A model generated the notes under the pieces. That model was not told the origin of the DNA and did no database searches. It saw nothing but the letters and a program-made list of their open reading frames with translations. The position numbers and the translations under genes are program-made. Positions 4,658-38,993 of a stretch of DNA of 64,000 bases are shown here, one piece after another (the first letter of the stretch is position 1; each line of letters opens with the position of its first letter). The stretch comes from Pseudovirgaria hyperparasitica. Taxonomy: Eukaryota. The stretch lies in NCBI GenBank assembly GCA_010093815.1, contig ML996580.1; one strand, written 5' to 3'.

Positions 4658-4696
4658 CGGATTATTAGTTAAGGGTAGCCCTTAACTAATAATCCG
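4658..4696. repeat. Shared 31-bp palindrome, copy in element A pol (18-bp perfect arms)
   Basis: CGGATTATTAGTTAAGGG-TAG-CCCTTAACTAATAATCCG. Confidence 0.95.
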
Positions 4697-7376
4697 GCTC
4701 AACTCCGGCTTCCGGCGACATGCTCCGCCATATAGTTAGTCTCTAGCCACGGAGTTACCCTCCTTCTCTAAGACTAGAATATACTCGTCCGGGCTGGTTT
4801 CGAAGGTTACACGTTCTTATCTATATACGGAGTGGACTATTAAGAGTACTTACCCGGAGGCTAACCTCTGCACTATAAGTAAGGCCTATCTGGTATATGG
4901 CTCCCCTAGGATAAGGTTATGATTGAGTTCGCTATATACGAATATCGAAGTGGCCGTAATAATCCGACCTATGCGGATAGGGCATTACTATACTATTCCT
5001 ACGAATAGAGTGCTATGCTAAGTAGCGCTAACCAAACTCGAGTTCTTTATATATGGTGGAAGCGAAGATATTACTAGCCCGAGACGCCTCGTAGCATCTA
5101 GTCGAATACCATTTATCTATGCGCCACTATCGAATAGTGCTATACTAGTTGCCCTTTTAGGACTAACTTCCACGGGGTACCTCGGACACTCGGCCACCAG
5201 CCTTACTATCCCTTCCTTAAGCTAATTAATATCTTGTTACGTGATGGCCGTCCCCGTGGCATGGAGGGGTACTAATATATTAAGTTTATTTATCTCGGGA
5301 GCTATAGCATGGTCGTTTCTTTCTTTCTTCTCGGCTCTCTCTTCTCGAGCCTCGCGGACCTCTCTAGCTATAAAGTCGGGGGCGCCCTTCTCGAATACCG
5401 CGTGACGTAAGTCGCTATTAAGGCTTAATAGTTCGCTAATGGTAATATTCATGGTTGTCCCTAGAACGCGCACCAGCCATGCTTCGCTAGCTTCTATGCT
5501 TAGCCGCTGTCCTTCGCGTAGATAGTTATTAAGCTTAACGCCTCGGATGCGTGCCTTTTAACTAGGATTTAGGCCATCCCCTTTATCTATCTTATCCTCC
5601 GGCGCCGTTAGCTCTTATTTAGACGTTCCCTGGTCGCCACTCTTCTCGCCGTCCTCCTATTCCTCGATAATCCTTACGTACTACCCTTCACGCATTCCGC
5701 GGAGACGGGCGATCTTTCTTTCCTTAGTACGATTAGGTGTACTCTTCGTGATCCCCCTTCTAGATATTATAAGTATAGCGGGCTCTTCTAGGGCCATCTC
5801 CTCGCGGATATATCTATTACTAGCCACGTCGAAGCGTTCGTGGAATTCTATATGTCTATCTTTCTTACTCTCGGGCGACGTGACTTCTTCTTCCGAATCG
5901 CTATCCGCCGAGGCCTAGTAGGGACCCTTCGTAGGTTTTATACTAATACTATATACCGGCACTCCCTATAAAGCGTTAATGTTTACTACGGACGTAGAAA
6001 CCTTCACTCCTCCTCCGTACTAGCTTAGGCCGTTTTAAACCGTTACTACGTAGTTCTAGATAGCTTATAGAGTAGCTTATAGCCCTACCGAGAAGGGTAG
6101 TAATGGGATTTCTTCTCCGTTCGCCCCGAAACGCCCTCGGAACACTCGCACCCCGTTAACATTTAGTAATCCGTCTCTAATGTATCCTACCATCTCCGGA
6201 CATCTATATATTAGATAATCTCCTCCGTACGTAATGCATACGATCGGTCTTCGAGGCCTATCCTAGGCTATAACACCTCCTTGGGAGTCTCGGGTGGAGA
6301 CGTATTCTCTATTCTATGTATAATTCTATGGATAAACTTGCGTTAGTTCCATGGGCATGCCTCGTGCTTAGGGATATGCTGAAAGATTTAGCCTTCGCGC
6401 CTACTAGTTAATAATGGCCGAAAGCAGCTTAGGTTCGTACTTCTTAAGGGATGGGAATGAGGGATTAGAGGCAAAGCAGGACTTTATCTTAATTAACGTA
6501 AGGTCTAGTTTGCTAAATCTTTCTACTATCTCGTTAAACTTATCCGATTCTAGCGCGACGTGTACTACGACTAGAGAGGGGTGGTTAAATTCATTAGTTC
6601 TTCTTTCTTTATGTGACTACTCTTCTAAGCCGGTCTTCTTACTCCCTATCTTTAATTTATGGTACATGGCTATGGCTAGCTCTTGTGCGGCTAAGTGCTT
6701 ATTAATACGAGCTAGTTCCTTAAGTGCTCTGGCCTTTCGTGATACGAAGCCATAGATAATTACCTAGTTATAACTATGTGCTTCCATCGTGAGTTGACAT
6801 TTCTCTATAGCCCGAGCCTTAAGACTATTAGGCAGCCCTTCTAGGAAGAGCTCTATTCGCGAATACGAGCTTAGGCTTCCTTTAGCCGTAAGTTTCTCCG
6901 TGATAACACGATACCGGGAGTAGTACATAGGGAGAGAGTAGAATAGGTCTACTTTAACCATTTCCACGTATTTTCGGACAAAGTAGATGGTGCCTTCCTC
7001 GAGGGTAGAGTTAAATGGAGAGAATTCCTTTAATAATTCTTCACGTAGCGTGGCCTACTACTATTTCTAAAACCTACTTATTCCTTTAATAGTAGGACGG
7101 AGATAGTCCTCGTAGTATGATGGTAGGGAGGTTATCTTCTTATTAGGCGGAACTTCGTAGTTTATATACATGTCCTCGTACTTCCGAAGGAAGGCCGTAA
7201 TGTTTATTCCTTCAAAGCGCTCGGGGGCTAGGGTGGGTAGAGGTACTATCCTTCCTTATCGCGCAAATACTACGAAGAAGTCAAGCATCTCTCTACGAGT
7301 TACTAGGTCGTTGTTTTAAGCTCCTATCGCACCATTACTAGTAGTAGGTATACTAGTAGAGACGCTGGGGGTAAGG

Positions 7377-7404
7377 TTATTAGTCAAGGGATTACCTTAA
7401 CTAA
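7377..7404. repeat. Degenerate copy of the shared palindrome near the element A gag start
   Basis: TTATTAGTCAAGGG-ATT-ACCTTAACTAA; retains un-RIPed TCAAGGG. Confidence 0.7.
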
Positions 7405-7911
7405 AGGTTGGCCTAATGCGCCTACCCACAACACCTATCATCCCTTCTCCATGTTAACTAATCCCTTTATAAGGTGAACTATTACTATCGTCTTCATCGA
7501 TATAAGGTTCACGGTACCCTACTTATGTTATTATCTTCGTGTAAGGCGTTCCTAAAGTAGTATACTCGTGTGGCCGTGTTTGTAAATGACAGCTATGGCA
7601 GCACTAAACAGGTTGTATTTGTCATTTTTGAACTCTTCTTTACTACTTCATCTAGCCCTGTTTTATATCCCATTCCCCTAAGACATTTTCGAGTCGCGCT
7701 ATCACCCGTGTTAGCATACGCATGCTTTTTACGGCTTCTTTTAAGAGGCTAGCCCCTAGCGACTCCGGACTCCCTGTTTTCCGGACTCGTGGCTTCGATC
7801 TAGTAAGTCTAGACTGCCTTATTAGGCACGCCATATACTTCCCCTAAGCTAGTTTCGGAGTCCTAATCTCCCCCTGTAAGTTCGTAGTCCGGGTACGACC
7901 TCTAAAATTAT

Positions 7912-7926
7912 GGTAAGCCATCGCCA
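7912..7926 (-). promoter_or_regulatory. Primer-binding site of element A (TGGCGATGGCTTACC)
   Basis: TGG complementary to the tRNA CCA end, 2 nt inside the LTR; tRNA identity not determined. Confidence 0.75.
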
Positions 7927-7928
7927 CG

Positions 7929-8279
7929 TGTATCCCTTAAGTAAATGGCTGTGTTCCTAGTATAGTAGTCACGACGAACTCACAAGTATCTCTCCCAGGT
8001 ATTATGAGTTCTCTTTGAACGCACGACTTCTTATTAGTTCTCTTTTACGATAGGACGGGTCTATACAATACTCTCAATCAATTCTTCAATAGCTAAGCCT
8101 AATAATCAATACCCATAGAGGCCCATGAACGTAAGGAAAGGTCGAATAGTCGAATATTAGTGATGGGGGAAGCGTGCCGAGCAGAATGACCAAGGAAAAC
8201 GCCCTCCTTAAATATACAATGAGCCATGTAATCGAGCTAGGGACACATACATGTAAGGCTATAGGAGCGGCCTTCCACA
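7929..8279 (-). repeat. 5' LTR of element A (351 bp)
   Basis: Minus strand starts TGTGGAAGG (8279) and ends GGGATACA (7929). It is followed 2 nt later by a TGG-starting PBS, and homology to element C begins exactly at 8280. Confidence 0.85.
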
Positions 8280-8704
8280 ATAGATTAACGATAATTAGGT
8301 CTATATAGCGAGGTTCTATATCTTCTTACTAATAGTTATAACTTACTAGTATAATTTACTATAGTATTATCGGAACGTTAATATCTCCTTCTAAAAATTA
8401 AGGATAGGGTTTAGGCGTCTAAGCTAAGGTATCCCTAGAATTATATTCTATTAGCTAATATTAGCTATGATAAATTTATTAGATATCTACTATTTTATTA
8501 TCTTTAAGTTATGAACTTTATAATTTATTATAGCTTTATCTAAAGTTCTAACTTTATATCTATTAACTATAATAGTTTAGCTAACTTTACTAAGATTATA
8601 CGATAATCTATACTCCTTTATAAGAATCGATAAAATATAGTTATCTTCTATACTAGTATCTACGAGGGCCTATATAGTTTTATTACTATTTACTATAGAT
8701 AATA
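8280..8704 (-). mobile_element. Protease-region fragment of a second C-family Gypsy copy (target of insertions A and B)
   Basis: Colinear with ~20823-21246 of element C, differing by transitions. Homology stops exactly at the A LTR (8279) and the B LTR (8705). Confidence 0.9.
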
Positions 8705-8944
8705 TATAAGAATTATAGACGTAGGATAGTAGTCTAATAGGTTATAGGAGGATTTAGAAATATATTTAAAAGGGTAGTCTACTCTTCTAACGAGGTTAAT
8801 TCCTAAAGAGTAGGAATTAAGTATATATAACCTACTTATATAGTAGTCTTGCTTATTCTAGCTAACTTAACCTAGGTCTACCTATTACGGACCGTACTAG
8901 ACTATAGTAGTCTAGTTAAGTCTATTCTAGTATTAGCCCTAATA
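8705..8944 (-). repeat. 3' LTR of element B (~240 bp) with adjacent polypurine tract
   Basis: Plus-strand termini tataag...ccctaata (RIP of TGTAAG...CCCTAACA). The minus-strand PPT AAAAAGAAGAAGGA at ~8948-8961 abuts the LTR. Confidence 0.7.
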
Positions 8945-10987
8945 ATATCCTTCTTCTTTTTATACTTCGCTCTAAAGTACTTAGCTATATATAAATCTAT
9001 AATTCTATAAGCGTTATATTTATACGTATATCTAATTAAATCTATATAATATTATTAATAGTCTTTATATTAGTAAACTTAAGCTCTAGTTTACTTTTAT
9101 TTATATACGCGTTTATCTCTTACTTCCTAGCTACTACCTTAGAGATAGCTCCGCGGGTTATATAACCGCTATATTAACTAAGCTTATATTTAGTTCTCTT
9201 ATTCTAAATTTTCTTCTCTAGTATATCTATCTTACTCTTAAGGTAAGTTATTAATTCGTATACTATCTCCTTTAGTTTAGATCCGTTCGGGTCTAGAGTA
9301 GTCTATTTTTATTAGAGCTAGTTCTATATAATCTATTCGCGTTATTACGGTTACTAATTTAGCTTCTTTAATCGCCTTTAAGACTAAATAAGTATTCTAC
9401 TCTTAGATCTCTAGCTAATATATATATATAGATATCTAATACTAGTTCTATTTCTAAGCCTATCTTCTTCTCTTATAAGACTTACTCTAAAGGGATTATC
9501 TCTACCCTAGCTATACCGGCTAAAAAATCTACTTATTATAGTAGTATAAAGGCGTACTCTAAGTTAGAGAAGAAGGTAGCTAAGACTACTACTACTATTA
9601 CTACTAATATAACTACTAGTTACTCTAATCTAGATAATTCTAGTACTAGTATTACGGAAGAGATAGCTATAAAGCCTATCTATATCTACTCGCGCTGTCT
9701 ATCTACTCTATCTCCTTTAGAGGATAAAGAAGATCTTATTATAGATAATAATTGAGAGTTTACGCCTTTGCCGCCTTACTCTAAATACTATTTCTCTTTT
9801 TAGTCTAATATAGATTAACTTAGTTACTCTAGGTTCTTTTAGAACCTTAATATTTACTCTAAATCTAGCCCTAGTAATAATAAGATCTAGGTTACTAAAG
9901 ATACTAAATATAGTTATAGTTTACACTATAGAAAAACAGTAAACTATAGTTTAATATACTTTAAGTATATTAAGGCTCACGTAACCGGCTCTAAATATCT
10001 CTTCCGCTCTAACTCTAGTATTAGCTACTACTCTACTAACCGCGATAGGCCTATATACCTAATCTTTAAGCTCTCTACCCGCTACCACCGCTATACTATC
10101 CTTAGTAAAGTTTATCTTTAGGTAAGTCTATTAGACTATTTTAGTCTAGGGTAATCTAAAGTTATCTATACTAATATATTTTTAGATTTCTATTTATATA
10201 TAAGATATATATAACGATCTTCACGTCCGTGAGACTCTTAGCGGTTCTAATAATTATCTAGCTTCTATACGTAGGGAGTTTAGGGAGTACTATAAGCTCT
10301 TTTTAGAGATTATTAAAGTATAAGTTTAGAAACTATTAATTATTATTAACCTTAGCTTATAATTTTTAGTCGCCGTAAGATTTCTAGTACTTAGACTATC
10401 TATTCTAGAGAGTTAGTTTTAGCTACTAAGGCTATAGAAGAGATTCGTGCTATTTCTTCCCGTCTACCTCGTGCTACTAACGGGTCTTATAAGAGATCTA
10501 CTAGTTCTCCTTCTAAGTTACCTTATAAGAGGGTATATATTCTATTCTAGATTATTCTAGACTATATTAGCTAACTTTAGGTCTAGTTACTCCGCTCTAG
10601 CGCTTAGTTATTATCTTACTAGACTCTAACTAAGCGCGTGGTTACTCTAGAAAATAAGGTCTCTAACCTCTATTACTCTATTACTCGGTTAGTTCGTTTA
10701 CTACGCTCTAAGAGTAATAATAAGATAGAGGAGTAGCTCTATGGCTCTATTTACTAGGGTTTCTATATAGTATATATTAGCTCTATCTACCTAGTTTCTA
10801 TCCGTTTTAGTCCTTTTTAGACCGTTTAGATATCTATCTACTAGTTTTCTAGTAATTTAATTCTTAACTTAATAATATTATATACGTTCTTATTTATTCT
10901 ATAACTATTAAATTCTAGGTTCTAATTTCCTTTAAGTTACTTAAGTATAGGTATTATATATAAATTAGTTTATCTCTCTAAATTATA

Positions 10988-11037
10988 TTAGAGTACCCGA
11001 ACTAGTAGTCTAGTAGTTATTAGTTCGGGTACTCTAA
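10988..11037. repeat. Inverted repeat/hairpin in the element B 3' region
   Basis: TTAGAGTACCCGAACTA ... TAGTTCGGGTACTCTAA; 17-bp perfect arms, extendable with transition-type mismatches. Confidence 0.9.
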
Positions 11038-14000
11038 CCTTTTATATTATATATTACAAGTTTAATTCCGTAGTAGGGTACCTTTTTAGTTTCTTAGTCC
11101 TATATTCTTCTTATATATAATAGTCTATATTAGTCTATTCTAGACTTCTCTATATTATTCTATTATAATATATCGCGTCGCGTACCTATAATGGTTATTT
11201 ACGTTTTCTTCGTGTTTAGTAACCGTATATCGCTTAAATTATAGGGCTATCTTATAGAGTTTTCCTAGTATACGTTTAGGATTTATAATTTAATACTTCG
11301 TTCTCTATAGTATTCTTCTTCTTTTTATAATAGCCCCGATAGCGCTAGGTTTACGGTAGTAATATATTATTCTATAACCTCTATTTATATATAGCTATTA
11401 TAGTACTTAAGATATACACCGTAGGTTTCTAGGTATTCTTATCCTTAGTATAGTTCTTCTAATAGATTTAATACTTTTAGATACCGTTCTCGTCGAGCCT
11501 ATGTTCGATAATATAGTCTACTTTATATATATCTAGTCTATCTTAGGGTATAATAGAGTATAATTATACGTTCATGCGTTTATATACGTTAGGTCGAAAC
11601 CTTTTAAGTAATAAGATATAGAATATATTATAGACTTTTATATCGTTTCCTAGGTCGAGCTTATAGACTCTTATACTAATATAACATTTAATTTAGAAGA
11701 GACTAGCCATTTTATAATCGAGCTTTTTATTTACTCGTAACGTTTATATATTATAGATATTAAGAAGGACTTTATCTCCCTTCTTATATACTTAATCTTT
11801 AACTAATCTATTATAGTACTTTATATATAACTTATTTACTTACTAGATTATTACACGATAGTTACGTGCGGTTTTAAAGATTTTAATTACTAGTTTCTAT
11901 ATATAGATGTTAATATCTATCGTTTAGTCGAACTAGACCGTATAAGATTCGAAACCTATTCTTAGACTACGTTCTAGGTTCGCCTAGAAGGGCGTGATAT
12001 CTATTATACTATAATAACTATTATTATACACGAATTCTACTATACTTAGTAGAGAGGCCTAGTTATCTTATTTAAAATTATAGAATATATAAAGGTAGGC
12101 CTCGAGTGTTTAGTTCTATCGCTCTATCTAACTATCTATTTATAGATGGAATACTATTAATATATTTCTATTTATACTAGCTATTTCGTAGAATAATGTC
12201 TAGAATTTAGACGTGAATATACTCCCTTAGTCTATAATAATTCTTTTTAGTATACTATAGACCTTAATAATCTTATTCTAGAATACTTATACTAGTTCTT
12301 TTAATATAATCATCTTCTATATAGGGACGTACCTAGATATCTTTATAAGTCTATCTACGATAATAAGAATTAAATTATAACTTATTCTAAGTATCTTACT
12401 TAGAGATAAGTTAACTATAAAATCTATAGTAATATCTTTCTATATAAAGAGGGGGACTAGTAGAGGCTATAAGTTCCTATATAGCTTATATCTAGGTACC
12501 TTTATTCTTTAATAAATTAGATAAGTAGCTATCTATTCTTTAATATACTTAGGTATATCTTTCTAAAAATAGTACTAACGAATTAAGCTTAGGGTACATA
12601 TATACCCGAAATATTCTACTAGGTTAGCGTTATAGTATTAGCTAACTATAGTAAATCGTACGTTATCTATCGGTATATAGTACTTTCTATTATAGTAGAG
12701 TAAGCCGTCTATAAAGGTCTACTTATAGTCTACTTCGGTCTATAATAACCTATCTTACTATATTTTATATAACTTTAAAACTATTAGGTCTATCTTTTAT
12801 AGATCCACGATTAACTAGGCGAGGTCTACTTAATATATATACCGGGTACTATCGCCCTCTCTAATAGCGCTAATAAATAGCTCGCTAGGGACTTCGGTAC
12901 CACGTCTTTAGTTACTAGCTTCGGTCTTATAAATTTAATTACTAGTATTAGTATTAGTATCTCGCTAATTATTAGATAACTTATTATCTAACCTCGTCCT
13001 TAAGAGTTAGGCCTATAGCTACTCTAGAACCCTATAGCTACTATAATTCTAGGCGCCTTCTTTATAGTTAGGTCTTCTTAATATTCTATTAGCTAGATTT
13101 ATACTTCTAGGTTAATAGTAGATTATAAAGTAGAAATTTATAAGCTACTTAGTCTATTAAACCTATTAACGATTTAAAACTATTATACTTATAAACCCCT
13201 TTAAGTTATAGTAATTAGTTAGTAACTTAACATTATATATAGTACCTTTAAGATAATATCACCACTACTTAAACAACTCTACTATTACTAGTAGCTCTTA
13301 GTTATAAATAGTATATCTAGTCTTAATATTAGCTATCTTACGCGAGAAGAACGTAACTAGATACTATTAGACCTTTTTAGACTCTATTAGTCTAGGCTAG
13401 AAGAGTATACCCGAGATTATAAATTCTAATATATTAGTTTTAATATAAATAGATTTAGTTAGGTTAAAGTACACTAGTAATAGAGCGGTTATAAATGCTT
13501 CTTTAATCTTCTTAAAGGATATTCTTTTAACCTTAGTTAATTTAATAGGTTATAATTTAATATTATGCTATTTCTATCTACTACGGACTATAATAGACGA
13601 GTTAGTAGTAGTAGTATACGTATTAAGTAGTGCGGCTAAATAGAAGAAGTATTTAATAAATTTTTAGTAGTAGTTAGTAAAGTTAATAAAGATACATATA
13701 TCTTAAACGGATTTTAGTTTAGGCTAGTCTATAATAGTAGTAACTCTATCTCTCTCTATAGTTATACCTTAATTAGTAATAATAAAGCTAAGAAAGTTAA
13801 TATAGTTCTAATGGAACTTATATTTAGATAGCTTAATATATAGCTTATACTTTTCTAGTCTATCTAGGACTATATATATATACTAGATATACTCCTTCTT
13901 ATTATCTAAGAAGATAAGAATATTATCTAGGTACACGATATATATCGTGTTAAGTAGGCCTACTAGCGCGTTATTAATATATACTTAGAAGGTATCTAGC

Positions 14001-15541
14001 GCGTTAGTTAGTCTAAAAGGGACTATAGTATACTTAAAGTATCTATAATAGGTCCTAAAAGCCGTTTTCTATTTATCGCCCTCCTTAATATAAAGGCGAT
14101 AGTAGACGTTATATAGATTAAGCTTAGTAAAGATCTTTATACGTTCTAGTCTATTAATAGACTTAGAGATAAGAGGTAGTAGATAACGATTCTTTCGCGT
14201 AATATTATTTAGACTATAGTAGTTAATATATAGATAGAGGCTCCCATTCTTCTTCTTTATAAAGAGGATTAGAGCTCCGGCTAGGGATATACTAGGTCTA
14301 ATCTATTCTCGCGTAAGGTTCTTTTTAATATATTCTTAAAGGGCTTATAACTTAGGTTCTAAAAGAGGGTAGATAGGTCTATATAGAGGTTACTAGCCGT
14401 CTTTAAGATTAATAGTAAGGTTAGTAGATTAGTATTAAGGTAGTTTAGAGAAATTAATCGCTAATATAATATATTAGTATATTTTATACTAATATAGTAG
14501 GTTTTCATCTACTTTAATACTAAGCTCGCTATTTTACGTAAGTAAGAGTACGTAGATAGTAGAGATCGCCTTCTTATAATCTTTCTAGAATTATTTATTA
14601 TTAATAAGCTATACTAGTTCCTATTAAGGTAGGTTTATATACTAACTAGCTATCTTCTTAAGAAAGTCTAGTTTTAGATTATATTTCTTAAGCTATAGTA
14701 TACCTAGAATTATATTAAAGGGACTATCTACTATAATAAAGGTTAAGTAGTAGAGTTTCTATTTCCCTCCGCTATCCTAGATACTATATTTAATAGTATA
14801 GGTACCGTATAACTTAATAGGACTGTCGATACCATAGAATATAGTACCTATTAGAGCTTAGATATCGGCGTTAAGTTCTTATACTTATTAGGTCGATATA
14901 ACGTTAGTAGCCGACCTACTATTAAGTATTATAGTCTAATATTATCTATAAGGGATCTTAATAGGTCTAGCCTATAGTTTAATATACTATTTAGCGGATT
15001 ACCCCTCTATTATAGTTATATCTATAAGTCGCGAGGGTTTCTTATAGGCTATTAGTTTTTTATATTCTATGCTAGATAGTTAGGCGCGATATATTCTAGC
15101 TACTAGCACTTATAGTATATAACTAGTTAGTTAGTTATATTAGTACTTAATAGCTTCCCTAAATAGTAGTTAGGTACTATATAGTCTATTCTACTATAGA
15201 TATAGTAAGTAACTTTAGGTTATTTATATAAGTTAGTCCTTATATCTCGATATATTAATTAGTAGAGAGATCTATAATATGATCCTCGTGGTTTTAAATT
15301 TAAGGTATAGTAGTAGCCTTATAACGTTCTATAAGATCTATTACTAAATTAGTTTTAGTTAGATAATTTTATATTAGATTAGATTATTAGGGATAGTCGT
15401 GCACTAGCGCGGTATTAATTATTTATTATATACTAGTATCGCTCTATAAGGTTTATAAGAGCTTAGAGGTCTATAGAGATTATTATTATAAGGTCGAGAC
15501 GGTCCTTTATATTTAGGGCGAGGGACTATTTAAAGTCGTCG

Positions 15542-15769
15542 TATAAGAATAGGGTTATTAGATAGTAGTATAGTTAGATAGAATAATAGAGTATATTCTA
15601 TTATAGAACGAATTACTACTAAACCCTTTTAGTAGAAATCTAAGAGTATATATATAAAGGGACGCCGATCTATCTAGTACGTAACTATTTACCGCCCTTC
15701 ACGTTACCTCCTAACCCTATTAGCTAAGGTACGTATAGATCGGGTCCTACCTAAGGCTAAGTCCTAATA
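15542..15769 (-). repeat. 3' LTR of element C (228 bp)
   Basis: Matches 22702-22929 at offset 7160; purine-rich tract on the minus strand adjacent at ~15770-15787. Confidence 0.9.
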
Positions 15770-18700
15770 ATTATCTCTTTACTCTAGGAAGCTACTCTTA
15801 GCGACCTAGATCGTTACCTATCTCTATATCCCTATCCTAAGTCTTGTAAGACCTTAGTCGTTCTCTATGCTTCGTCTTAGATACTTACTAATATTTACTA
15901 ATCTAAGATTTATATAAGCGTTTTCCTAATAAACTAGATTTTATCTATCTTAACTTCTTATATAGGTAAGATAATCTAATTAGGCCTAGCGTATCACGTA
16001 ATATAATTAGATAAGCCCGGGTACTACCTATATTAAAATCTTTTCTTAGAAATATTCCTTTCTTTAAAAAACTTCTTAACTCTTTATAGAGTTTTTTAGA
16101 TTATTAGGTATATCACCCGATCCTTATAGATATAGATTTATATAGATTTACTATAATTTAGTACGATTTACATAATTTACTAATTTTTATACTATCCTTA
16201 GCTAGTAATAATATAATTCGTAATAATCCGTATAAATTAATAATAATTATAATATAGTTTCCCGAAATCTCGACGCTCTAAAGTAATTAGTACGGAAATA
16301 GGCGCTTTTAAATAATCCCTATCTTATATACATTACCGATATATCGAAAGCTATTAATCTACCCTGACCTAGGCCGGGCTCTAATAATCTAGCTATATAT
16401 TATTATAGTTATCGCTTTCTATCGTATATTACTTATAGCGGTACTAAATCTATAATATATAGTACTTATATAACTAAGAAGCGTTATTACTTATAGGTAT
16501 TTAAATAAGTTCGAAGAACTTTATATAGATTTACTTATATTAGTATAGATTACTACTAGGCCTCTAGTAACCCCTACTAATAAGGAGTATAGTACTACTA
16601 ATTATAATACCTTAGAGAAGGCTTTCTATAAGCTATATATCTAAGATAAGGGTTACGCCTAGGAGTACGATTCTAATAAGATCTATAAGGATTTATTAGA
16701 ATCTACTATAGCTATTATTACCGCGATTACTAGGTAATATTATTTTTCTTAAATTATTATAGATTCTTACTAATATATATTAATCTCTATAATAGTACTA
16801 AAATCTCTACTACTTTAGACTTCTTTCTATATACTAGTAATATTAAAATTCCTAGAAAAGGTTCTAGTAAAAAGGCTAAGGTTCCTTCCTCACGCGTGCT
16901 AAAGAGCTATAAATTTAGGGAAGATAGCTCTAATCTAGAAGTTTCTATACTAAAGGTATATAGTTCTATACCGATTATTAAATCTTTTCGCTAATTTATA
17001 TAATTCTTAGCGTGCCCGCGCTAGTCCGTCTCTCTCTATTCTAGATCCCGCTACTCCGTAGGTTTCTATAGAGGAGTTTATAGCTATAAGGCGCGCTATA
17101 TAGAATTTATAGTATTAGAACGAAAGGCTAGAGACTTATATTATAAAGCTCTATACTATACTAAATAAGAACTAGCGGAAGGAATTAGATATAACTATCG
17201 CGGTAATTAGTACTTCTACTCCTACTCCGACTTAATTAGTTTAGATCTATACTAATTAGTACTAATATATCTCTTTTATCTAGCGTTTTTAGTTTTTTAG
17301 TTTTAATTTTAAAGCAATCTTACTTCTTCTAGATAGATTAATACAAGTTTATATAAATCTATATAGATCTTTATATTTTCTTTTAGCTTTCTTAATTTTA
17401 TCTTTCTTTAATAATAACTTCTTTAATCTCTTTAGTAATCTATACCGATCTATACTAATCGGCACCGATTTTTAATATCCATTTCTCTTAGTAAATTATT
17501 TTTCTAAGTCTCTTTTTTAGTTAAATTTTTTAAAGTTCTAAGTTCGAACTTTCTAAGGAAGTTCCTTAATTCCTTAGAATGTTTTAAAGATCTATATCTC
17601 TTTTACCTTCTTCCTTTTAGACGGCCGTCCTTAGTACCGAACTATACTAAAAAATGTTAAATCACTGTACTTTAGTATAATTCTCTATAATTCCGTAGCT
17701 TCCTTTACTAATTACTACTTATATACTAATATTGCTACTTTACTAATATTTATTATAGGTTCCTAAGTATCTTCGTTAGGATTATATCCTTTCTAATAAA
17801 TTTTATATAGCTACGTGCTATCTTCGGCGCGTTACTAGCTAAGTATCTACTTAACTTTATAGATATCTATACCTTCTTACGTAACTACTTTATATAGTAT
17901 CTATTTAGAATAATCTAGTAATAATAAGGCATGAAATAGCTCGAGAAGTATAATATAGAATATATTATATATCTTTAACGTAGAAGGGAGTTATAACTTA
18001 TACATCTAGTTATTAATTATACGAATAATCTTATATAGATCTATTATTATATAGTTAAGCTTCTTCTTTAGCCTAATACTATAAATATTCTTACTATTTA
18101 GTAAAACTTTATCCCTAATATTAAAGATCATGGGTTTTCTACCCTTATTATAGTACGATTTACTATAATTCGTAGTATCTTATAGTAACTTTATAACGCT
18201 TCTTTACGTTTAGAATAGTTCTATAGTAATTTCTATTACTTTAACGTTAGGTCGTTCTACTTTAAACTAAGTCCCTAAGAACTATATATTATAGTTCTAA
18301 CCGAAGTTTACTTTGAACGGACTTACGTAGGTTAATATATATCGGCTATTATTATACGCGAATTCCGCGATATAGACTAACCTTACCTAGTTATCCTACT
18401 TATAGTTATAATATACGCGTAAATACGCCTCAACTATCTAATTCTACCGCTCCGTCTATCTATCTATTTATAGATAGAACGTAGTACTAAGTTTCCGCTT
18501 AATTCCTAGTGTATAGTAGAAATCCTTCTAAAATTTAGACGTTATCTACGGACCTCTATCCGAAACTATACTATTCGGTATACTATAGAGCCGGACTACG
18601 TCACGGAGTAGTATATCTATAAGATCCGGTACTTAGATTATCTTCCTTATAGAGATATAGTATAATATCTTCGTAAATCTATCTAGAACTATAAGTAAAC

Positions 18701-21700
18701 TATTATAAATATACCTAGAATACTTACTTAGGGGTAGATCTATAATAAAATCTATTAATAATTCCTTCTATACCTCCTTTAGTATAGGTAATAGCCTTAA
18801 TTCGCTATATAGTAAGTGTCTATATACTTTCGTATACTAGTAAACGTTATACGTTTTTACGTAGTCTTTTATATATTTATAAAGACCCGGCTAGTCGTAC
18901 GTCCCTCGGATTAAATCGACCGTCCTTATAATACTAAAGTACCCTACTAACGCGTAATCGTACTATTCCCTTAAAATATTAATTTATAAGCCGCCTTCTA
19001 GCACGTAGAGTCGGCCTTAGAAGTAGATCGCGTCTAATCGTCGTTTCTATCTTAATAACTACGGCGGATCTATAGCGCTTTCTTTTATACTTATAACTTT
19101 CTTTACTAATATATTAGAATTCTAGGTAGATTTAATTAAGTCTTTAAGGGTTTTCTTAGTTTCTTAGACATTTATTTAGATTACTTAATACCCGCTCTAA
19201 TTCCCGCGGAGAATTACCGAAAGTGTCCTAGCTTCTAGTATTCTATTAGATAACTAGTCTTATAGTATCTAAAGTATAGTATAGTCTAACTTATACCGAC
19301 TATCTATATTATTCTATAATGATTTCTTATAATCTTTACGCCGCGATAGAGGATTAGCTTTATTCTCTCTTCTAGCTTTATATAAGATTTTAAAGTTAAA
19401 TATTAATATCCACTTAGCCTAATATACTTATCGGCGATTAAGGACCTTAGTTAATATAAAGTAACGTAGATTTACGTGATCCGATAATAATTTAATCTAA
19501 TATATAGAGCCTTCTAAATAATATTACTATTACTTAAAACTCTTAACGATTACGAGTAGTTTCTAGTCGTGTATATTATAACGCGTCTCTATATCCGCCA
19601 TTTTATAGGAAAAGAAAGCGACCGGGTACTATTATACCTTATCTTTTATATCTTTATACGGTTAACTAATAATTCTAGTAATTACGAATCCTAACGCGTT
19701 AGTTTTAACCTAAATATACTTCTTAGAATCGTAATACCTAAGAATCGGCGTAGTTATAAAGTAATTCTTTAATGATCGGAACGCATCTCGCGCTTCCGGC
19801 GTTAACTATATCTTAACTAACTTAGCTTTATACTATGCTCGCCTACCTATAGGGATTTTACCGCCATTCTCTATAAGTTTATTAAGCGGCGCCGTAATTC
19901 ATAAGAAGCCTATAATGAATTTATGATAATAGTTTATAAAACCTATAAATATTCTAATTTAACGTATAGTAGTAGGTTCTAGCCATTCTATAATAGTCTT
20001 TACACGCTCCGGCTCCATTTTTAGGCCGCTATATATTATAATAAAGCCGAGAAACCTAACTTCTTATTAGTGAAACTCGCATTTAGATAATTTTACGTAG
20101 AGTTTATACTACCTTAGATAATTTAGTACTAATTTCACGTGTCCTTTATAATCCTATATACTATCGGAGTAAATTAGTATATTATTAAGATAAACTACGT
20201 AAATCACGTTAAGTAATCCTACGAGTATAGTATTAATATATCCTTAAAACGCTCCTAGTATATTTATTAGCCCGAATGGCATAATAGTATACTTAAAATA
20301 ACTATATCTAGTCCGAAATGCGGTTTTCTACTTATCTCCGCAATAAATTTAAAGCCGGTAATATATATCTCGTAAATCTAGCTTCGTAAAGTACTTTACC
20401 TTTATTAATTAGTCTAAAGATTTACTAACTAGCGGTAATAGATAACGATTCTTCTTAGTTACTATATTTAGTGCCTAATAGTCGACGTATAGACGTAAAC
20501 TTCCGTCTTTCTTCTTTATAAAGAGAATAGATACGCCGGCTAATAATATACTATAATATATCTAGTCTCTTCTAAGGTATTCTTTAATATATTTATAAAG
20601 AACTTCGAGTTCTAGTCTTAAAAGTAGATAAAGTAGACTATAAGGGACGTCTACTCCCTCTTTAAGCTCGATCTTTAGCTTATACGGCCCGTAATTAGGG
20701 AGAAGTAATATATCTCCTACCGAAAACATATCCGTATACTACGAATATACGTTAGATAGCGTGTCTTCGCCCCGATTATTACTATTATCCTTATCTTTAT
20801 TAATAATTAATAAGGATATAAGATAGATTAGTAACGATCGGGTCTACATGGCAAGGTTCTATGCCTCCTTACTAATAGTTACGACTTACTAGTATAATTT
20901 ACTATAGTATTATCGGAACGTTAATATCTCCTTCTAAAAATTAAGGATTAGGTTTAGGCGTCTAAGCTAAGGCATCCCTAGAATTATATTCTATTAGCTA
21001 ATATTAGCCACGATAAATTTATTAGATATCTACTATTTTATTATCTTTAAGTTATGAACTTCGTAATTCGTTATAGCTTTATCTAAAGTTCTAACTTTAT
21101 ATCTATTAACTATAATAGTTTAGCTAACTTTACTAAGATCGTATAATAATCTATACTCCTTTATAAGAATTAATAAAATATAGTTATCTTCTATACTAGT
21201 ATCCACGAGGGCCTATATAGTTTTATTACTATTTACTATAGGTAATAATACTTTTAGTAATATTAGGTCTTTACTCGCCGGAAGGCGCTACGGCTTCTTC
21301 TAAGTATATATAATTTAGCTAAGGACGCGGTTAGATCTCGTGTACTAGCCTATTCTTTTTTCAGATTCTTATAGTTAGGCGAAATATATTCTATTTCTCT
21401 ATACTTATAGTAATAAAGTACGCTATAATCCTACTATTTTACGATAGGCATTATATTTAAGTCTATGCCTTATCCTTTTCCGCGTTAAGAAGTACCACCT
21501 TAATTATTTTAGTATCCTCTTAACGCGTTTCTACCCTAATTTATACTCTTCTAGTACTAATCGTGGTAAGGTTACTCTTAATTAAACGTATTCGATTGAC
21601 CTCGTTTCTAACCTATATAGAGTTCGTCGGTTTTACCTAGAGAGCCACGTTCCTTAAGAATACGGTAGTATTTATTAGCTTTCTCCTCTAATTTATATAG

Positions 21701-22701
21701 ATAGTTAAAACTTAATAATACTATTTCTAGTCTTTCGTGGATTAACGGAAGTAGTACTTTACGAAACTAGAATATATAAATATTTTCCTATAGTATAGAG
21801 ATATTATTCTATAGGTTTTAGAGATATTATAGTAGTTAAGTAGGTGTCTAGTTCGGTCGTTATACTATACTTCTTAACTTAGATAGTATCTTTCTTTTAC
21901 GTTCTCTATCTGTTCTAAGGGTGTTTAGTATAAATATAGCTAAATATTTCTAGGTTATTATAGATAGTAGCTAGCTATACTTCCTTCTATCTATTCTATT
22001 AATCGCGGGATTATAAGTCTAGGTATCGTTCTCCGAATAAAATATATTATACTTTAGTAGAAAAGAGTAGAGGGTTATCGAGGAAGTACTTTTCGTAGTC
22101 TCTCTTCTAGTCTTTCTACTCCTTTTAGTTCTTCCCTATAAATATAGTCGGGTTTTTAGATTTTAGTATATCTAGAGAAGAAGTAGAGTAAATTAGTAAC
22201 GAAGCGGCCGGGTATATGGTAGATTATCGTAACTCTAATAGTAGATAAACTAATTCCGCCTAAATTAGTATAGGAAGTCGTCTACCTACTATTGTTCGGC
22301 GTAGTTCTTTAAGAGACTTCTTAAGTTCTTATCTCTTTATAAGGAGTTTCGCGCGTTCTATCTATTCTTTAAGAGTTTAAATCTCTCGAGTCTAATTCGC
22401 GATATATTTCTAAAGTTTAGTAATAGTTTATTATAATACCTTATATAGCTCCGCCACGACTCGTTATCCGACTTTATATTATTAGAAGTTACTTAGTATA
22501 TCTACTATTTCTTCGTCTAAAAGCTCCGTAATTTAGTCTAATATCTCTACTTCTTAGTTAGAAATAGCTAGAATTAATTCTAATTATAGAGGATCCCTAT
22601 TATTTAATATAGTATTACTTATCTCTATAGTAGATTATATCGACCTTCTCGGTTCTAGTTAGACTATCTTAACTATAGTACTATATAGAGAGTAATTTAA
22701 A

Positions 22702-22929
22702 TATAAGAATAGGGTTATTAGATAGTAGTATAGTTACATAGAATAATATAGTATATTCTATTATAGAATAAATTACTACTAAACCCTTTTAGTAGAAATC
22801 TAAGAGTATATATATAAAGGGACGCCGATCTATCTAGTACGTAACTATTTACTACCCTTCATACTATCTTCTAACCCTGTTAGCTAAGGTACGTACGAAT
22901 CGGGTTATATCTAAGGCTAAGTTCTAATA
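22702..22929 (-). repeat. 5' LTR of element C (228 bp)
   Basis: Matches 15542-15769; TATA-like run ~22806-22818. Confidence 0.9.
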
Positions 22930-28686: not shown

Positions 28687-28925
28687 AAAAACTCCGAACT
28701 AGAGGCCTAACGGACTAAACTGGTTAATTCGGGGTAAAATAGCAATTTACATACATTAAACGATAGAGTACACCGAGTATAACAACCTCCGATACACGTG
28801 TATACGTATAGTATATAATACGCGACGATACTAACGTATAGAGATACTATATATATACGCTTAAAGACTCTTCGATAACACGAGTATAGACTATATCTAA
28901 TAAACGCCGATACGCCGACCCCCTT

Positions 28926-28956
28926 TTATTAGTTAAGGGCTACCCTTAACTAATAA
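28926..28956. repeat. Shared palindrome, L2 5' copy
   Basis: TTATTAGTTAAGGG-CTA-CCCTTAACTAATAA. Confidence 0.95.
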
Positions 28957-31633
28957 CTATAGCGGCCTTAGACATTATAATACCCCGGTATACGCTAGAT
29001 ATACCTCTACTAGTACGGTAGAAACGGCTATATAGCGATATTAATATAGATAGCTAGATACCTATCTAAAATATAGGAACTAACTAAGAGTACGAAGTAC
29101 TATAGATAACCTAGACTAAGGGGACCCTAAGAGGGGAGACCCTCCTAGATAAAATTAAATACTAGGTAATACGTATAGAGAGGGATACTAAGAAGGGAAA
29201 GAAGACCCTTCTTTATATATTCCGGGACCTTATCCGGAATCTAAGAGAAATTATAGAGAAAGAAAGGAAGTCGCTACAAGAGGAATCTAGTAGTAGACTT
29301 AACTAAATAGAAGCTAGCCTACGGAGAATCTAGAAAGAGCTATTCTAAGGTAAGCGCCCTAACACATAGGCTTAGATTATAGTAATACCCGGAGCTACCG
29401 TACTAAGGACTACTAGAACCATAGATAGAGTATATAGTATATATATTATAATCTAGGATAAGGACACGCTAGCGTAGGTCTAATAGGTATCCCTAAAGGA
29501 AATTATAAATAAGATTAACGAATAGAAAGGAATATAGTCGAGTATCGTGGCTACTAAAGTTACGCTAGGTAGGGTAGTACTTACTACTATAATAAATACT
29601 ACGTAGTAAAATATCTCACGAGATCCGAACGTAATAGGTAGTATCTTCCCTAGCGCGTCTATTAGGGTAGCTATATACCCGATTATAGTATATATAGTAC
29701 CCATACGGGGATAGGCTATCGGAGTAGAGAATATCACGCGTATAGAATAATCTAACACGCAAAAATACCCAGGGATTAAGATTATAAAAGCGTGGTAGAA
29801 GAACCTATAGGCGATTAAGACAACGGCGAAAAAACACTCTACTATAATTATAGAGCTCCGAGACCCCGCCCTTATATAATATATTATATAGAAGGGATTC
29901 CTAGTAGAAGGAGAGCTTCTTATAGCCGAGCCATAGAATAGAGTATAGGTAATAATATAGTGCTTTAACTATTAAGGGTATAGATATACTATATAAAGGT
30001 ACTTATAGAAGACTAAGTACGGATAGTACCGTAGGGACCACGCTATCTAGGAGTACCCTTATAAACCGCGAGGAGACGGACTAAGAAATAAGGATATAGT
30101 ATAGTATTTAAACTACAATAGGAAACACCCGTTATAGTCGTTAACGTATATAAAACGTAAATAGATTATAGAATATATTTATATAATAAAAGCGAGAGAC
30201 GCGAGATAGTTATAGAATATAACACCTACTACGGGCCCTTTCTTTATAATACCCCTAACCTCCTCTCCGGAAGGTAGTTAGGTAGGATAGTAGACTATCC
30301 CGAAGACGATAGGACAACTAAAAGGCATAGTTAAAGCCGCTACCGCGCGAGGATAGTCGCGCCTCTAAGGAATAAGTATATAGATATATATACTCCCTAG
30401 TACCTAATAAGGGACTAGAATATACTCTAAATTATATAGGTAAATATATAATATAAAAGAGAGAACTAGGCGACGCTCCTTAAAGAGACTAGGGCTATAA
30501 TACTCGCTATCTAGGAACCCTATAAATACTACTAGACGAGTAAACTAACCATATACCCTGGATACTATACTATATACCCTCTAGGACTAGAAAGACGAGT
30601 CCTCTTCTATATTTATAGGTTAATACTACTCTTATTATAGTTATATACCAAGCGCGATAACCTTAGAATAATACTATACCTATAAATAGATATAGGCCCC
30701 CTATATATATATAATATATATAACTAATAACATGTACTTATACTAGACAAGATACTTAAGGGTACTATAGAACTAGGGTAATATATCCTTCTAGGAGACT
30801 TTAACCTCTACTACTAATAGTAGAGAGGCCTAGCTATAGTTAGGGAAGAACTTAGAGTAAGGGAACTACGTACCCGCTACTACGACTTCCTATACCTACT
30901 TATACTTATAGAATAAGTTATATAGAAAAAATATAAATAGGACGAAGACGGGTCTACGCTTAACCTTACCTTCGCCACGGAGTATATTAGTTACCGGATC
31001 TAATATTACCGCCTAGGCTAGGTATAGACGGATTCCGACTATAAATATATAGAAACCGTAATAAACGTATATACCCCGAATAAATAATAGGGACAATAGA
31101 TATAGAAGGACACCAACTAGGAAAAGTACCTAAAGGACCTAGAATCGGCGATTCTAGATCCCTCTATAGTCGATATATCTAATAACCTAGCTATAGACTA
31201 GGCCGTATAGATACTCCTATAAATATACTAGAATATAAGAAATAAATACATACTATACTAAATATACTAGCCCCCGGAAGTAAAGGGGATTCCTTAAGTA
31301 TAGGAAAGTAGATAAGACGCCCGAAGGCTATATATACGCGTATACTATATAAGAATACCCGAGTCGTAGGAAGAATAGAAGGAAGTAATATAATAATAAT
31401 AATAATAATAATATTATATAACTAGGTAGAGTAGTACTCTATAGACCTATGCCTCCTCTAGTCTAAGCCACTATATAAGAAGAAACCCTATAGGGAAAAA
31501 CTTCCTTATATCTATAACTACATCTCGTTAAACCTCTATTTCGTCTTAAGTATATAGCTATAGGGTACGCCTATTAGCCTATAGCCTATATTACCGTTAT
31601 TTTACCCTTAGGTAGCACGTGTAGATGCGGAGG

Positions 31634-31664
31634 TTATTAGTTAAGGGCTACCCTTAACTAATAA
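31634..31664. repeat. Shared palindrome, L3 3' copy
   Basis: TTATTAGTTAAGGG-CTA-CCCTTAACTAATAA. Confidence 0.95.
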
Positions 31665-32857: not shown

Positions 32858-33647
32858 NNNNNNNNNNNNNNNNNNNNNNNNNNNNNNNNNNNNNNNNNNN
32901 NNNNNNNNNNNNNNNNNNNNNNNNNNNNNNNNNNNNNNNNNNNNNNNNNNNNNNNNNNNNNNNNNNNNNNNNNNNNNNNNNNNNNNNNNNNNNNNNNNNN
33001 NNNNNNNNNNNNNNNNNNNNNNNNNNNNNNNNNNNNNNNNNNNNNNNNNNNNNNNNNNNNNNNNNNNNNNNNNNNNNNNNNNNNNNNNNNNNNNNNNNNN
33101 NNNNNNNNNNNNNNNNNNNNNNNNNNNNNNNNNNNNNNNNNNNNNNNNNNNNNNNNNNNNNNNNNNNNNNNNNNNNNNNNNNNNNNNNNNNNNNNNNNNN
33201 NNNNNNNNNNNNNNNNNNNNNNNNNNNNNNNNNNNNNNNNNNNNNNNNNNNNNNNNNNNNNNNNNNNNNNNNNNNNNNNNNNNNNNNNNNNNNNNNNNNN
33301 NNNNNNNNNNNNNNNNNNNNNNNNNNNNNNNNNNNNNNNNNNNNNNNNNNNNNNNNNNNNNNNNNNNNNNNNNNNNNNNNNNNNNNNNNNNNNNNNNNNN
33401 NNNNNNNNNNNNNNNNNNNNNNNNNNNNNNNNNNNNNNNNNNNNNNNNNNNNNNNNNNNNNNNNNNNNNNNNNNNNNNNNNNNNNNNNNNNNNNNNNNNN
33501 NNNNNNNNNNNNNNNNNNNNNNNNNNNNNNNNNNNNNNNNNNNNNNNNNNNNNNNNNNNNNNNNNNNNNNNNNNNNNNNNNNNNNNNNNNNNNNNNNNNN
33601 NNNNNNNNNNNNNNNNNNNNNNNNNNNNNNNNNNNNNNNNNNNNNNN
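32858..33647. other. Assembly gap (790 N) inside the L3 RT region
   Basis: Run of N; the flanks map to L2 36935 and 37770, so ~834 bp is expected. Confidence 0.99.
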
Positions 33648-36366: not shown

Positions 36367-36397
36367 TTATTAGTTAAGGGTAGCCCTTAACTAATAA
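36367..36397. repeat. Shared palindrome, L3 5' copy
   Basis: TTATTAGTTAAGGG-TAG-CCCTTAACTAATAA. Confidence 0.95.
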
Positions 36398-38962
36398 AAG
36401 GGGGTCGGCGTATCGGCGTTTATTAGATATAGTCTATACTCATGTTATCGAAGAGTCTTTAAGTATATATATATAGTATCTCTATACGTTAGTATCGTCG
36501 CGTATTATATACTATACGTACACACGTGTGTCGGAGGTTATTATACTCGGTGTACTCTATCGTTTAATGTATGTAAATCGCTGTTTTGCCCCGAATTAAC
36601 CAGTTTAGTCTGTTAGGGTGTGAGAAGTTTTTTTTTCGAAGGAAGTAATATAATAACGCGATAAAGTTCTCCGTAACGAAAGGCGTAAATAGTAGTATAT
36701 AATTACTAGTTAATAGATATAATACGTAACGGGGCTATGGCGTATAGCGAAATAGGCTAAGGGCGTAGATACTCCGACACCCCTACTACTTATACCTCCC
36801 CTAATATATTAGGGGAGAATATACTCTACGAGCCTAGAGAAAACTAAGGCCCTACGGGAGGCCATATTCCCTCTTCTAGAACTAGTAGATCTATTAGACG
36901 TTCACGGCGCCGAATATCTATATATAGTAGATATCCCTAAAGAAGTTACGGAGGAGGATATACTTAATATTATTAAGATACTCCTAAATAATAAAGTACC
37001 CGGACCAGATGGAATTCTAAATTAATGTCTAAAAAGTACTATAAAAGCGACTCTACCACTTATTACTCATATATTCTAAGTATACGTCACGTAGGGATAC
37101 TACCCCTAGAGCTTCCGAGTCGCCTATACTATTATACTCCCGAAACTAGAAAAGAGCCCTAACTCTCTAAAGGAATAGAGACTAATCGCCCTTCTCTTCT
37201 ACCTAGGTAAGATACTAGAGACTACGGTAGCGAAGAAGATAAGTACCATAGTATAGAAATATAATCTTCTCCCTCCAAACTAGAAGGTAAAGATAGATAG
37301 CTCTCTAATAATAGCTATCTAATATATTATTAAAGTTATCTAGGCCGCATAGAAATAGAGACGGGTAGTATTACTCCTCTCCCTTAATATAGCCGGAGCG
37401 TTTAATAAGGTAAACTATATAAGACTTATTTATAACCTCCGGATAAGATAAATACTAGAATGGATTATACGCTTTATATAGTTATTCCTTATAGGAAGAA
37501 TAACTTAGATATATATCTCTAGATACTAGAGCGAATATAAAGAGATGGTATACGGCATTCTATAAGGGAGTACTATCTCTCTAATTCTATTTCTCTTCTT
37601 TACGGTAGACCTTCTTTAAGAAATAAAGTATATAGAGGTAGTCGGATATACTAATAATATATACCTTCTAGCTATTAATAATAATACTAACCGAACGTAT
37701 AGATAACTAGAATAGAACTATAAGAGGTGCCTCTAGTAGGTAAAACGCTACGGAGTAAAGTTCGCCCTAGAGAAATACTAGCTCATGCACTTTATTAATC
37801 GTTAAGGGAAATAGGTAACTAGGGAAGGCGAATAACGCCCCTAAATCAACGTATTTAACGAACTACTAGTATAAAGTATATACACGCTCGGAGTTATACT
37901 AGATAGTAAGCTTAAATAGGGACTATAAGTAGTATACGCCGTCTCTAGGGCCCTCTAGATAGAAGCCGCTATATAATAGATTATAGCCTCTACGTAGGGA
38001 ACCGCCCAGGATAAGGCATGCTAGCTATATATATCTATGGCACGACCTACCTTTATATACGGATATAAGTACTAGTATACGGCCCTTATATAGACTAGGT
38101 AAATAAAGCTTAAATCTATATAGAACCGTATACTCCGTCTTATATTAGGCGTATATAAAGCTACTAATATAGTACTACTACGACGTAAGATAGACGTTAT
38201 AAGTATATATAACTTCTACTAGATATAGAGGGTAGTATACTTTACTAAATAATAAGTATAGAAACGTATAGGAAATATAGAATATACTTTTACCGCGCTA
38301 TATATATAAATTAGTATATATTACCGCGCACTTCTATATATAGGCCGGAATTAAATATAGTATAGATACTTAATAGAAGCTAACTCTAGCTAAGTAGTAT
38401 AAGAAGTCTAAGATAACCCGGACGCTCTCCTAGACTAGTAGAGCCTTTAAGAACTTATAAAAAATATACGGTTATAGACTTAAGATAAGTAGAAAGAGAC
38501 ACTCTATACCTACTAGACCTCCTAGTAGAATAGGTACCTAGAGTAGATTTAAGGGCTATAGAAGGAACTAAGTAAATAGATATATAAAGGGCTAACGAAA
38601 GCCTAAGTATCTATACTTATCTAAGCCCGAACGGGCGCTATAGAACTCCTATACTATATCTATAAGAGAGGCGTTCCTAATACCTCTCTATAGTATAAGG
38701 CGTACGGCCGGAGAGGTATAATACACTACTATCTAGCTATATACCCTAACCTCTATATATAATAGTAATAGCTTATCTACGTTACGAAGACTTTAGATAT
38801 TATATAATAGCTTAATAAGTACCCTAAGGATATCTCCTAATAGATACTTATATATCTACTACTCCTCTAGTACTAGTAGACCTAGAAATATATACCGGAA
38901 GAGACCCGGTATACGCTAGTAGTAACCTAATATATACCGGAAGAACCCCGGGAGAACCCTAA

Positions 38963-38993
38963 TTATTAGTTAAGGGCAGCCCTTAACTAATAA
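38963..38993. repeat. Shared palindrome, L2 3' copy (at the ORF2 stop)
   Basis: TTATTAGTTAAGGG-CAG-CCCTTAACTAATAA; loop retains un-RIPed CAG. Confidence 0.95.

Follow-up and report, generated by a model that had tools for sequence, protein, structure and literature searches.

How does the same short palindrome come to lie in two unrelated classes of retrotransposon? The question is raised by a 64,000-nucleotide stretch of the genome of the Dothideomycete fungus Pseudovirgaria hyperparasitica (contig ML996580.1 of assembly GCA_010093815.1; hereafter the window), in which a palindrome of 31 bp, named PAL in this analysis, occurs both in a Ty3/Gypsy element and in a family of long interspersed nuclear elements (LINEs). 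To our knowledge, short modules common to unrelated transposon classes are rare, and the known cases usually involve a common host factor or direct exchange. PAL is found at both ends of the LINE and inside the polyprotein of the genome's most abundant Gypsy element. It is real and undescribed, and its mode of spread and its function are open to several readings.

Occurrence and symmetry of the palindrome

We searched both strands of the window with an IUPAC pattern for PAL, allowing up to three mismatches. This gave six sites, starting at 4662, 26662 (one mismatch), 28926, 31634, 36367 and 38963, against a mean of 0.00 in 100 dinucleotide shuffles. Relaxing the search to nine substitutions brought the total to exactly seven, the sole addition being a degenerate copy at 7377 (23/31 positions matching; five of its eight mismatches are transversions), while none of 20 composition-preserving block shuffles contained a site at this threshold. 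Every site named in the original prediction, which had been made from the sequence alone, was recovered in this way, the degenerate copy included. No PAL was found in the other two Gypsy elements of the window (8280-22926, 14.6 kb) or in its gene part (40401-64000, 23.6 kb), promoters included, again as predicted. When single arms were sought in the window with up to two mismatches, none turned up beyond the PAL sites except three weak two-mismatch matches at 19659, 32819 and 37795. A 30-bp match near 2200 to the region beside the 7377 copy is a chance similarity.

The window contains 36 perfect palindromes with arms of at least 9 bp, and PAL copies have the longest arms among them: 18 bp at 4658-4696, 15 bp at 38963, and 14 bp each at 28926, 31634 and 36367. 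The longest palindrome unrelated to PAL has 13-bp arms, and the one-mismatch PAL copy at 26662 has arms of 12 bp. The least mutated copy, at 38963, retains a CAG centre that has escaped repeat-induced point mutation (RIP) and forms a perfect 15+1+15 palindrome. The palindrome originally described as 14-3-14 is real, but is better written in this second form, as the central base is its only asymmetry. At 4662 the symmetry extends by four further pairs, giving the 18-bp arms and a total length of 39 bp (4658-4696).

RIP has left its traces inside PAL, with centres that read CAG, TAG and TAA and a G-to-A change at 26674. Two un-RIPed remnants, TCAAGGG at 7384 and CAG at 38977, lie where they had been reported. 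Single-arm changes at 26674 and 7385 are uncompensated, and the arms are otherwise invariant apart from RIP. Because RIP hits both strands, symmetry of the arms after RIP cannot be counted as covariation. Across the three PAL contexts, comparison of the 30 arm positions revealed no transversion, which reflects either a recent common origin or constraint. PAL is a genuine palindromic sequence that is older than RIP.

Host elements and reading frames

Both hosts lie within positions 1-39240, which consist of RIPed repeat DNA (TpA/ApT 1.5-1.78 and (CpA+TpG)/(ApC+GpT) 0.00-0.54, compared with 0.61 and 1.26 in the gene part). The first, Gypsy A (1-8279, minus strand), is moderately RIPed and encodes protease, reverse transcriptase (RT), RNase H and integrase in that order and in a single frame, with matches to RVT_1, RT_RNaseH and Integrase_H2C2, as is characteristic of Ty3/Gypsy elements; no pair of long terminal repeats (LTRs) was found for it inside the window. 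Its better PAL copy (4662-4692, minus strand; extended form 4658-4696) is situated in the linker between protease and RT. Its translation in the single gag-pol frame, the only frame in which PAL is open, is RIISxGLPLTNNP, with the protease motif LFDSGA on one side and RVT_1 on the other. A bare 31-bp insertion would shift the frame, whereas the extended palindrome of 39 bp amounts to exactly 13 codons. The degenerate copy (7377-7407, minus strand) is also in the gag-pol frame, upstream of or at the start of gag.

The second host is a LINE family of which self-comparison and domain scans resolved five fragments, none of them full length. L1 (22927-26939, plus strand) is 5'-truncated, with apurinic endonuclease (APE) and RT domains and a (TTA)n tail. 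L2 (28706-31394, plus strand) includes the true 5' end and breaks off at 31394, where the tail of L3 (31393-32857, minus strand) intrudes; L3 itself is a 3' part that enters a gap of undetermined bases (N). L4 (33648-36617, minus strand) extends from the true 5' end, at 36617, to the same gap, and L5 (36686-39240, plus strand) is 5'-truncated, with an RT frame that enters PAL. The family is Tad/I-like, having an APE-type GDFN motif and RVT_1 in the same frame (RVT_1 matches with E values of 3.7e-11 and 1.8e-07) and homologues that bear Exo_endo_phos and RVT_1. A (TTA)n tail closes the element, 5' truncation varies among the copies, and two copies whose upstream DNA differs fix the position of the 5' end. 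With GDFN and RVT_1 in one host and protease, RT, RNase H and integrase in the other, the claim that the same palindrome is carried by unrelated classes holds.

PAL occupies two positions in the LINE. In all three copies with a 3' region it is placed 247 bp ahead of the (TTA)n tail: in L1 (26662-26692, plus strand, centre TAA), in L3 (31634-31664, minus strand, centre TAG in LINE sense) and in L5 (38963-38993, plus strand, centre CAG). In both copies with a 5' region it is placed 220 bp inside the 5' end, with a CTA centre in LINE sense (L2, 28926-28956, plus strand; L4, 36367-36397, minus strand). The central base in LINE sense is T in both 5' copies, where CTA derives from CTG, while the three 3' copies all have A or a RIP product of it. 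Copies at the two ends are exact reverse complements, central base included. One 5' and one 3' copy had been proposed for each full-length LINE. Both positions do occur, but this arrangement is a composite of partial copies, as no single LINE copy in the window bears both.

At the 3' site the RT frame of the LINE reads NYxLRAALNxx, PAL supplying two stops, and in both 5' copies the open frame of PAL agrees with the APE/RT frame that follows. Relatives of this LINE end 12-25 residues past the last conserved motif and this one would end about 34 past it; therefore PAL may hold the stop of the second open reading frame (ORF2) or sit just beyond it. Calling open reading frames by stop-codon type is uninformative here, because RIP has erased nearly all TGA codons in every frame. 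The frames given in the original prediction, a Gypsy linker between protease and RT and a LINE RT frame ending in stops, are both right. So is its view that conservation is at the level of the nucleic acid, given that the PAL sites are read in different frames.

Edges and flanks

What the two families have in common appears to be essentially the palindrome itself, with sharp edges. Inspection of the flanks revealed no target-site duplication at any of the seven PAL sites. In local alignments of 60-nt flanks between the Gypsy 4662 site and the LINE sites, the scores were reached in 42 to 482 of 500 shuffles. Anchored tests, in which 32-nt flanks were compared with random Gypsy segments (80 tests, uncorrected), gave a few low values: 1/1000 and 9/1000 for the sense right flank of Gypsy 7377 against the flanks of 26662 and 31634, respectively, and 15/1000 for the sense left flank of Gypsy 4662 against that of 26662. 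Such short similarities are hints that would fit the transfer of a patch from the LINE 3' region.

Within the LINE, the exact 15-mer CCCGGTATACGCTAG occurs both at 38905-38919, 43 nt left of a 3' PAL copy, and at 28984-28998, 27 nt right of a 5' copy. The LINE 3' region also has the repeated motifs CCGGTATACG and CCGGAAGAACCC, which are related to this 15-mer. The earlier description of the flanks as unrelated is consequently correct for the Gypsy and LINE alignments, which are nonsignificant, but needs qualifying for the 15-mer common to both LINE sites and the few low anchored values. A PAL confined to LINEs, with Gypsy copies embedded in longer LINE-derived sequence, is not clearly what the window contains: PAL is present in both families, and the flank similarity is marginal.

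Occurrence at family level

We aligned contigs from two runs (X1 and X2) of one sample, perhaps the assembly's own source, to positions 1-8279 at 80% likeness. Such contigs reveal presence, not absence, and variants were listed at a threshold of 5%. Gypsy A has a very high copy number, with 20895 contig pieces in X1 and 7071 in X2, and the differences among these are overwhelmingly C-to-T and G-to-A. No Gypsy A variant without PAL appeared at the 5% threshold, and none of the four one-base indels listed is at PAL. Contigs break at PAL, with loose ends at 4661, 4662 and 4692 that read into flanks of the LINE 3' and 5' types. Contig depth doubled in the bin containing PAL, but this has no copy-number meaning and was not used. 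At a further loose end, 4658, three X2 contigs keep CGGA and PAL and have other upstream sequence, which looks like the flank of Gypsy A minus a short stretch. These contigs may represent a second Gypsy A subfamily with PAL, or a fifth context.

Adding the LINE 3' regions (3/3) and 5' regions (2/2) to the Gypsy A contigs, all seven PAL sites are family-level, and PAL belongs to two unrelated retrotransposon families as such, not to individual copies. Among the three LINE copies, 28/31 PAL columns are invariant, compared with 14-28 in neighbouring windows of 31 bp, and these flanking windows contain 0-6 columns with transversions.

Searches beyond the window

The search for Gypsy relatives gave 93 homologues of at most 51% identity, none of which has the PAL peptide. 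The seven that cover the protein best align only from a conserved block about 100 residues downstream of PAL. An exhaustive HMMER search with the 240-residue Gypsy linker against 1.84 billion representatives gave eight matches, all confined to query residues 2-112, the protease part. The PAL peptide was also absent from the 57 LINE homologues, which include powdery mildew sequences and of which the best are 29-33% identical.

At the nucleotide level, the PAL 31-mer pattern had no match in viral and prokaryote genome collections. A metagenome scan with the inner 25-mer gave five loci in three contexts, one inside bacterial RecG, one inside bacterial LepA and the third between genes. In the LepA and RecG contigs (L002:4-28 and L003:382-406) the 25-bp core has the centre TTA and different outer bases. 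We judged the metagenome loci, which lie in bacterial contigs and all differ from PAL in their outer bases, to be chance matches. Rfam gave no match at gathering score anywhere in the window; a weak mir-1277 match beside the LINE 3' PAL (E 0.084, 23 bits against a gathering score of 81) does not cover it. Judging from search results alone, no description of PAL was found in the literature, and the one string match was in an unrelated paper on human cancer. PAL is, as originally proposed, undescribed, being absent from Rfam and from searchable papers. The label of a cis-acting system that came with this proposal is not supported.

A hairpin module spread by template switching?

The reading that we prefer, while holding it somewhat short of probable, is that PAL is a small hairpin-forming cis module with a presumed function, passed between retroelements by template switching of reverse transcriptase. 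Since every site is family-level and none is found in individual dead copies, other Gypsy elements or genes, PAL would have been acquired by replicating master lineages, through reverse transcription, and not by dead genomic copies. Family-level sites argue against random hopping at the DNA level and for acquisition by active retroelement lineages. The likeliest route would be that RT switches templates, or that retroelement RNAs or cDNAs expressed together recombine over short patches. A growing PAL cDNA would be self-complementary, and would match the RNA of every other PAL copy as well; because it could anneal to such RNA in either orientation, an exchange might end at the palindrome, which could itself set the ends of the exchanged patch.

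PAL could then be retained because it is harmless, or because it is useful as a strong hairpin. Predicted RNA folds of 75 nt around the sites range from -16 to -36 kcal/mol (z -2.8 to -5.7), the strongest being that of the 4662 site (-35.9 kcal/mol, z -5.7). In the pol linker of Gypsy A, being read in its only open frame would leave the polyprotein unbroken. In the LINE, complementary 5' and 3' copies would let the two ends of the RNA pair, or let the cDNA jump across from the 3' to the 5' copy. Plausible roles for the modelled hairpins are therefore RT recognition, 5'-3' pairing of LINE RNA and pairing of Gypsy RNAs. If this is right, PAL would give a handle on template switching between different fungal retroelements.

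Several points weigh against template switching of a hairpin module. The flank hints do not survive correction for the 80 tests made, and in the sense-sense orientation of these hints the central base of the 4662 copy is opposite to that of the LINE 3' copy. Template switching normally moves patches of variable length, so some structural cause, or selection, would have to explain three patches whose ends coincide with those of the palindrome. A symmetry interrupted by just one central base is found more typically in double-stranded DNA sites than in RNA hairpins. Conservation of PAL among the LINE copies does not exceed that of its flanks. No relative close enough to show a clean indel was found among the 93 Gypsy and 57 LINE homologues, and the evidence comes from one 64-kb window together with the presence-only contigs of one sample.

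A second reading gives PAL no role. It may have arisen once, for example in the LINE 3' region, and reached the LINE 5' region and a Gypsy master by chance recombination, being frequent today only through the amplification of its hosts. We find this one-off neutral capture rather unlikely, though it accords with conservation in the LINE family that is no better than that of the flanks, with the decay of the 7377 copy (eight mismatches, five of them transversions), with the weak similarity between Gypsy and LINE 3' flanks and the 15-mer common to the LINE 5' and 3' neighbourhoods, and with the family-level status of every site; PAL would then be a curiosity of one genome. It requires, however, that the patches end exactly at the palindrome in three contexts, that the arms remain free of transversions between contexts while their flanks cannot be aligned, and that the four extra palindromic pairs at 4662 arose by a chance of 1 in 256. 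A third reading, in favour of which are four distinct contexts, each with edges sharp at 31 bp and flanks lacking convincing homology, is a self-propagating mini-palindrome of 31 to 39 bp. It would insert precisely into retrotransposon RNA, cDNA or DNA without a target-site duplication, survive in coding sequence only in its one open frame and ride on host amplification. Such a parasite of parasites would be a eukaryotic nuclear counterpart of the bacterial repetitive extragenic palindromic (REP) and Rickettsia palindromic elements (RPE), and a handle on a new kind of very small mobile sequence. Both Gypsy sites and the LINE 5' site are in an open frame relative to the downstream domains, the 39-bp form consists of whole codons, and contigs of the organism continue from PAL into several different flanks. 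We nevertheless give insertion of this kind little credence. The coding status of the 7377 and LINE 5' sites is only putative, for a transposase, 31 bp would be a very small substrate, and we saw neither a solitary or polymorphic insertion nor a single copy in 14.6 kb of other Gypsy sequence or 23.6 kb of genes. The mobile-module idea of the original prediction thus meets with sites that are all family-level, lack target-site duplications and are without presence/absence polymorphism, down to the missing PAL-less variant of Gypsy A at the 5% threshold.

Perfect symmetry to a single central base pair, as in the 38963 copy, would instead suit an operator for a dimeric DNA-binding protein of the host or of a transposable element, for example paired GATA-type sites that serve as a promoter, silencing or targeting element. 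One copy sits in the LINE 5' leader, where internal promoters are located, and each inferred un-RIPed arm ends in a WGATAR-like hexamer. The criterion for paired GATA factors is two HGATAR sites within about 30 bp; the arm ends may be of this type, by resemblance to the motif and in the un-RIPed form only. Selection on a binding site would account for 6-10 bp per half site but not for identity over 15, the remaining copies are in the pol linker and the 3' region, and no PAL occurs in promoters of the 23.6-kb gene part. Nor was a candidate protein identified, the window encoding none beside PAL. An operator is in our view improbable; as with a hairpin, it would make PAL a handle on a site exploited by both classes. 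Last, an adapter, linker or assembly artefact placed into repeats is scarcely credible. The size of the palindrome and its sharp edges are adapter-like, PAL is confined to repeats and the scaffold has an N gap, but the copies differ by RIP-type transitions and one is degenerate, the Gypsy pol frame runs through PAL, the same family position recurs in 3/3 and 2/2 diverged LINE copies, and two runs (of one sample), assembled separately, both yielded contigs with PAL. Having passed through RIP, PAL is neither an adapter nor a product of assembly. Two further candidates were rejected: a piggyBac-like TTAA site, as TTAA arises only via RIP, and an LTR-LTR circle junction, as the centre of PAL lacks CA/TG.

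Comparison with known systems

In stringent LINEs such as UnaL2 of eel and R2, the RT recognises stem-loops in the 3' untranslated region. PAL is likewise predicted to form a stable hairpin in 3/3 LINE 3' regions, before the simple-repeat tail. However, it is 247 bp from this tail rather than at the end, it is a perfect palindrome with a complementary second copy in the 5' region, and it is also present in an LTR element; recognition by the RT is conjectural here. The leaders of LTR retroelements contain palindromes that act in dimerisation and packaging, such as the Ty1 PAL sequences and the HIV-1 dimerisation initiation site (DIS), which are 6-14 nt long and specific to single families. The 7377 copy resembles these in being palindromic near the start of the Gypsy gag, and palindromes can pair two RNAs. 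PAL differs in its 31-nt length, in having its best Gypsy copy in the pol linker, and in being shared with a LINE. Chimeric fungal retroelements produced by template switching, such as MINE in Magnaporthe, join long segments. They would be akin to PAL in the exchange of sequence between unrelated elements during reverse transcription, but what the two families share here measures only 31 to 39 bp, with the palindrome as its bounds.

Among mobile sequences, Rickettsia palindromic elements and the REP and Correia elements are small bacterial palindromes that enter open reading frames in frame. PAL is similarly short, lies in unrelated contexts and is in an open frame of coding sequence, but it is eukaryotic and nuclear, much shorter, seen only in retrotransposons at family-level positions, and has no known transposase partner. 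With miniature inverted-repeat transposable elements (MITEs) it shares its small size and its construction from inverted repeats, but not target-site duplications or internal sequence, and there are no lone arms elsewhere in the window. The arm search, which covered the window, also gave no sign that PAL is the terminal repeat of a longer autonomous element.

Helitrons have 5' TC and 3' CTRR ends, insert between A and T, and carry a hairpin about 10 nt before the 3' end. In the three good contexts, the inner 25 bp of un-RIPed PAL start with TC, end with CTGA and lie between A and T, and PAL has a hairpin and no target-site duplication. These ends follow largely from palindromy, because a palindrome that starts with TCAG must end with CTGA. 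Moreover, the PAL hairpin abuts the end (within 3 nt) instead of preceding it by about 10 nt, no known Helitron is nearly as short as this unit of 25-31 bp, three contexts agree in the outer 3 bp too, and the 7377 copy is not preceded by A. Pfam scans of the transposable-element part of the window turned up no Rep/helicase.

Other features of the window

A second perfect palindrome, with 11-bp arms and no loop, occurs at the same LINE position in L4 (33766-33787) and L5 (36796-36817), and is not common to other families. L3 abuts L2 with its (TTA)n tail, the junction being a GAAGGAAGTAATAT/AATAA site (31380-31400 and 36640-36685), and AATAA is also present at the corresponding spot of intact LINE sequence in L5. 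This junction looks like a nested insertion primed by microhomology between tail and target. A run of 790 N bases (32858-33647) parts L3 from L4, and the order and orientation of the LINE pieces around this gap are not certain.

The region between Gypsy A and the LINEs (8280-22926) is made up of two heavily RIPed minus-strand Ty3/Gypsy elements with RVT_1, RNase H, integrase and SH3_Tf2-1 domains. Two repeat pairs in this part, 8280-8704/20823-21247 and 15542-15769/22702-22929, are interleaved, a pattern not accounted for by simple nesting. At the other side (39241-40400), the RIP signature ends abruptly within about 1 kb of the tail of L5, giving way to DNA with a GC content of 0.50 and normal RIP indices. 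The gene part includes, at 42686-44950, a gene for a Zn2Cys6 transcription factor with 99% identity to a protein of Pseudovirgaria hyperparasitica, the next best match being 45% identical and from Lophiostoma.

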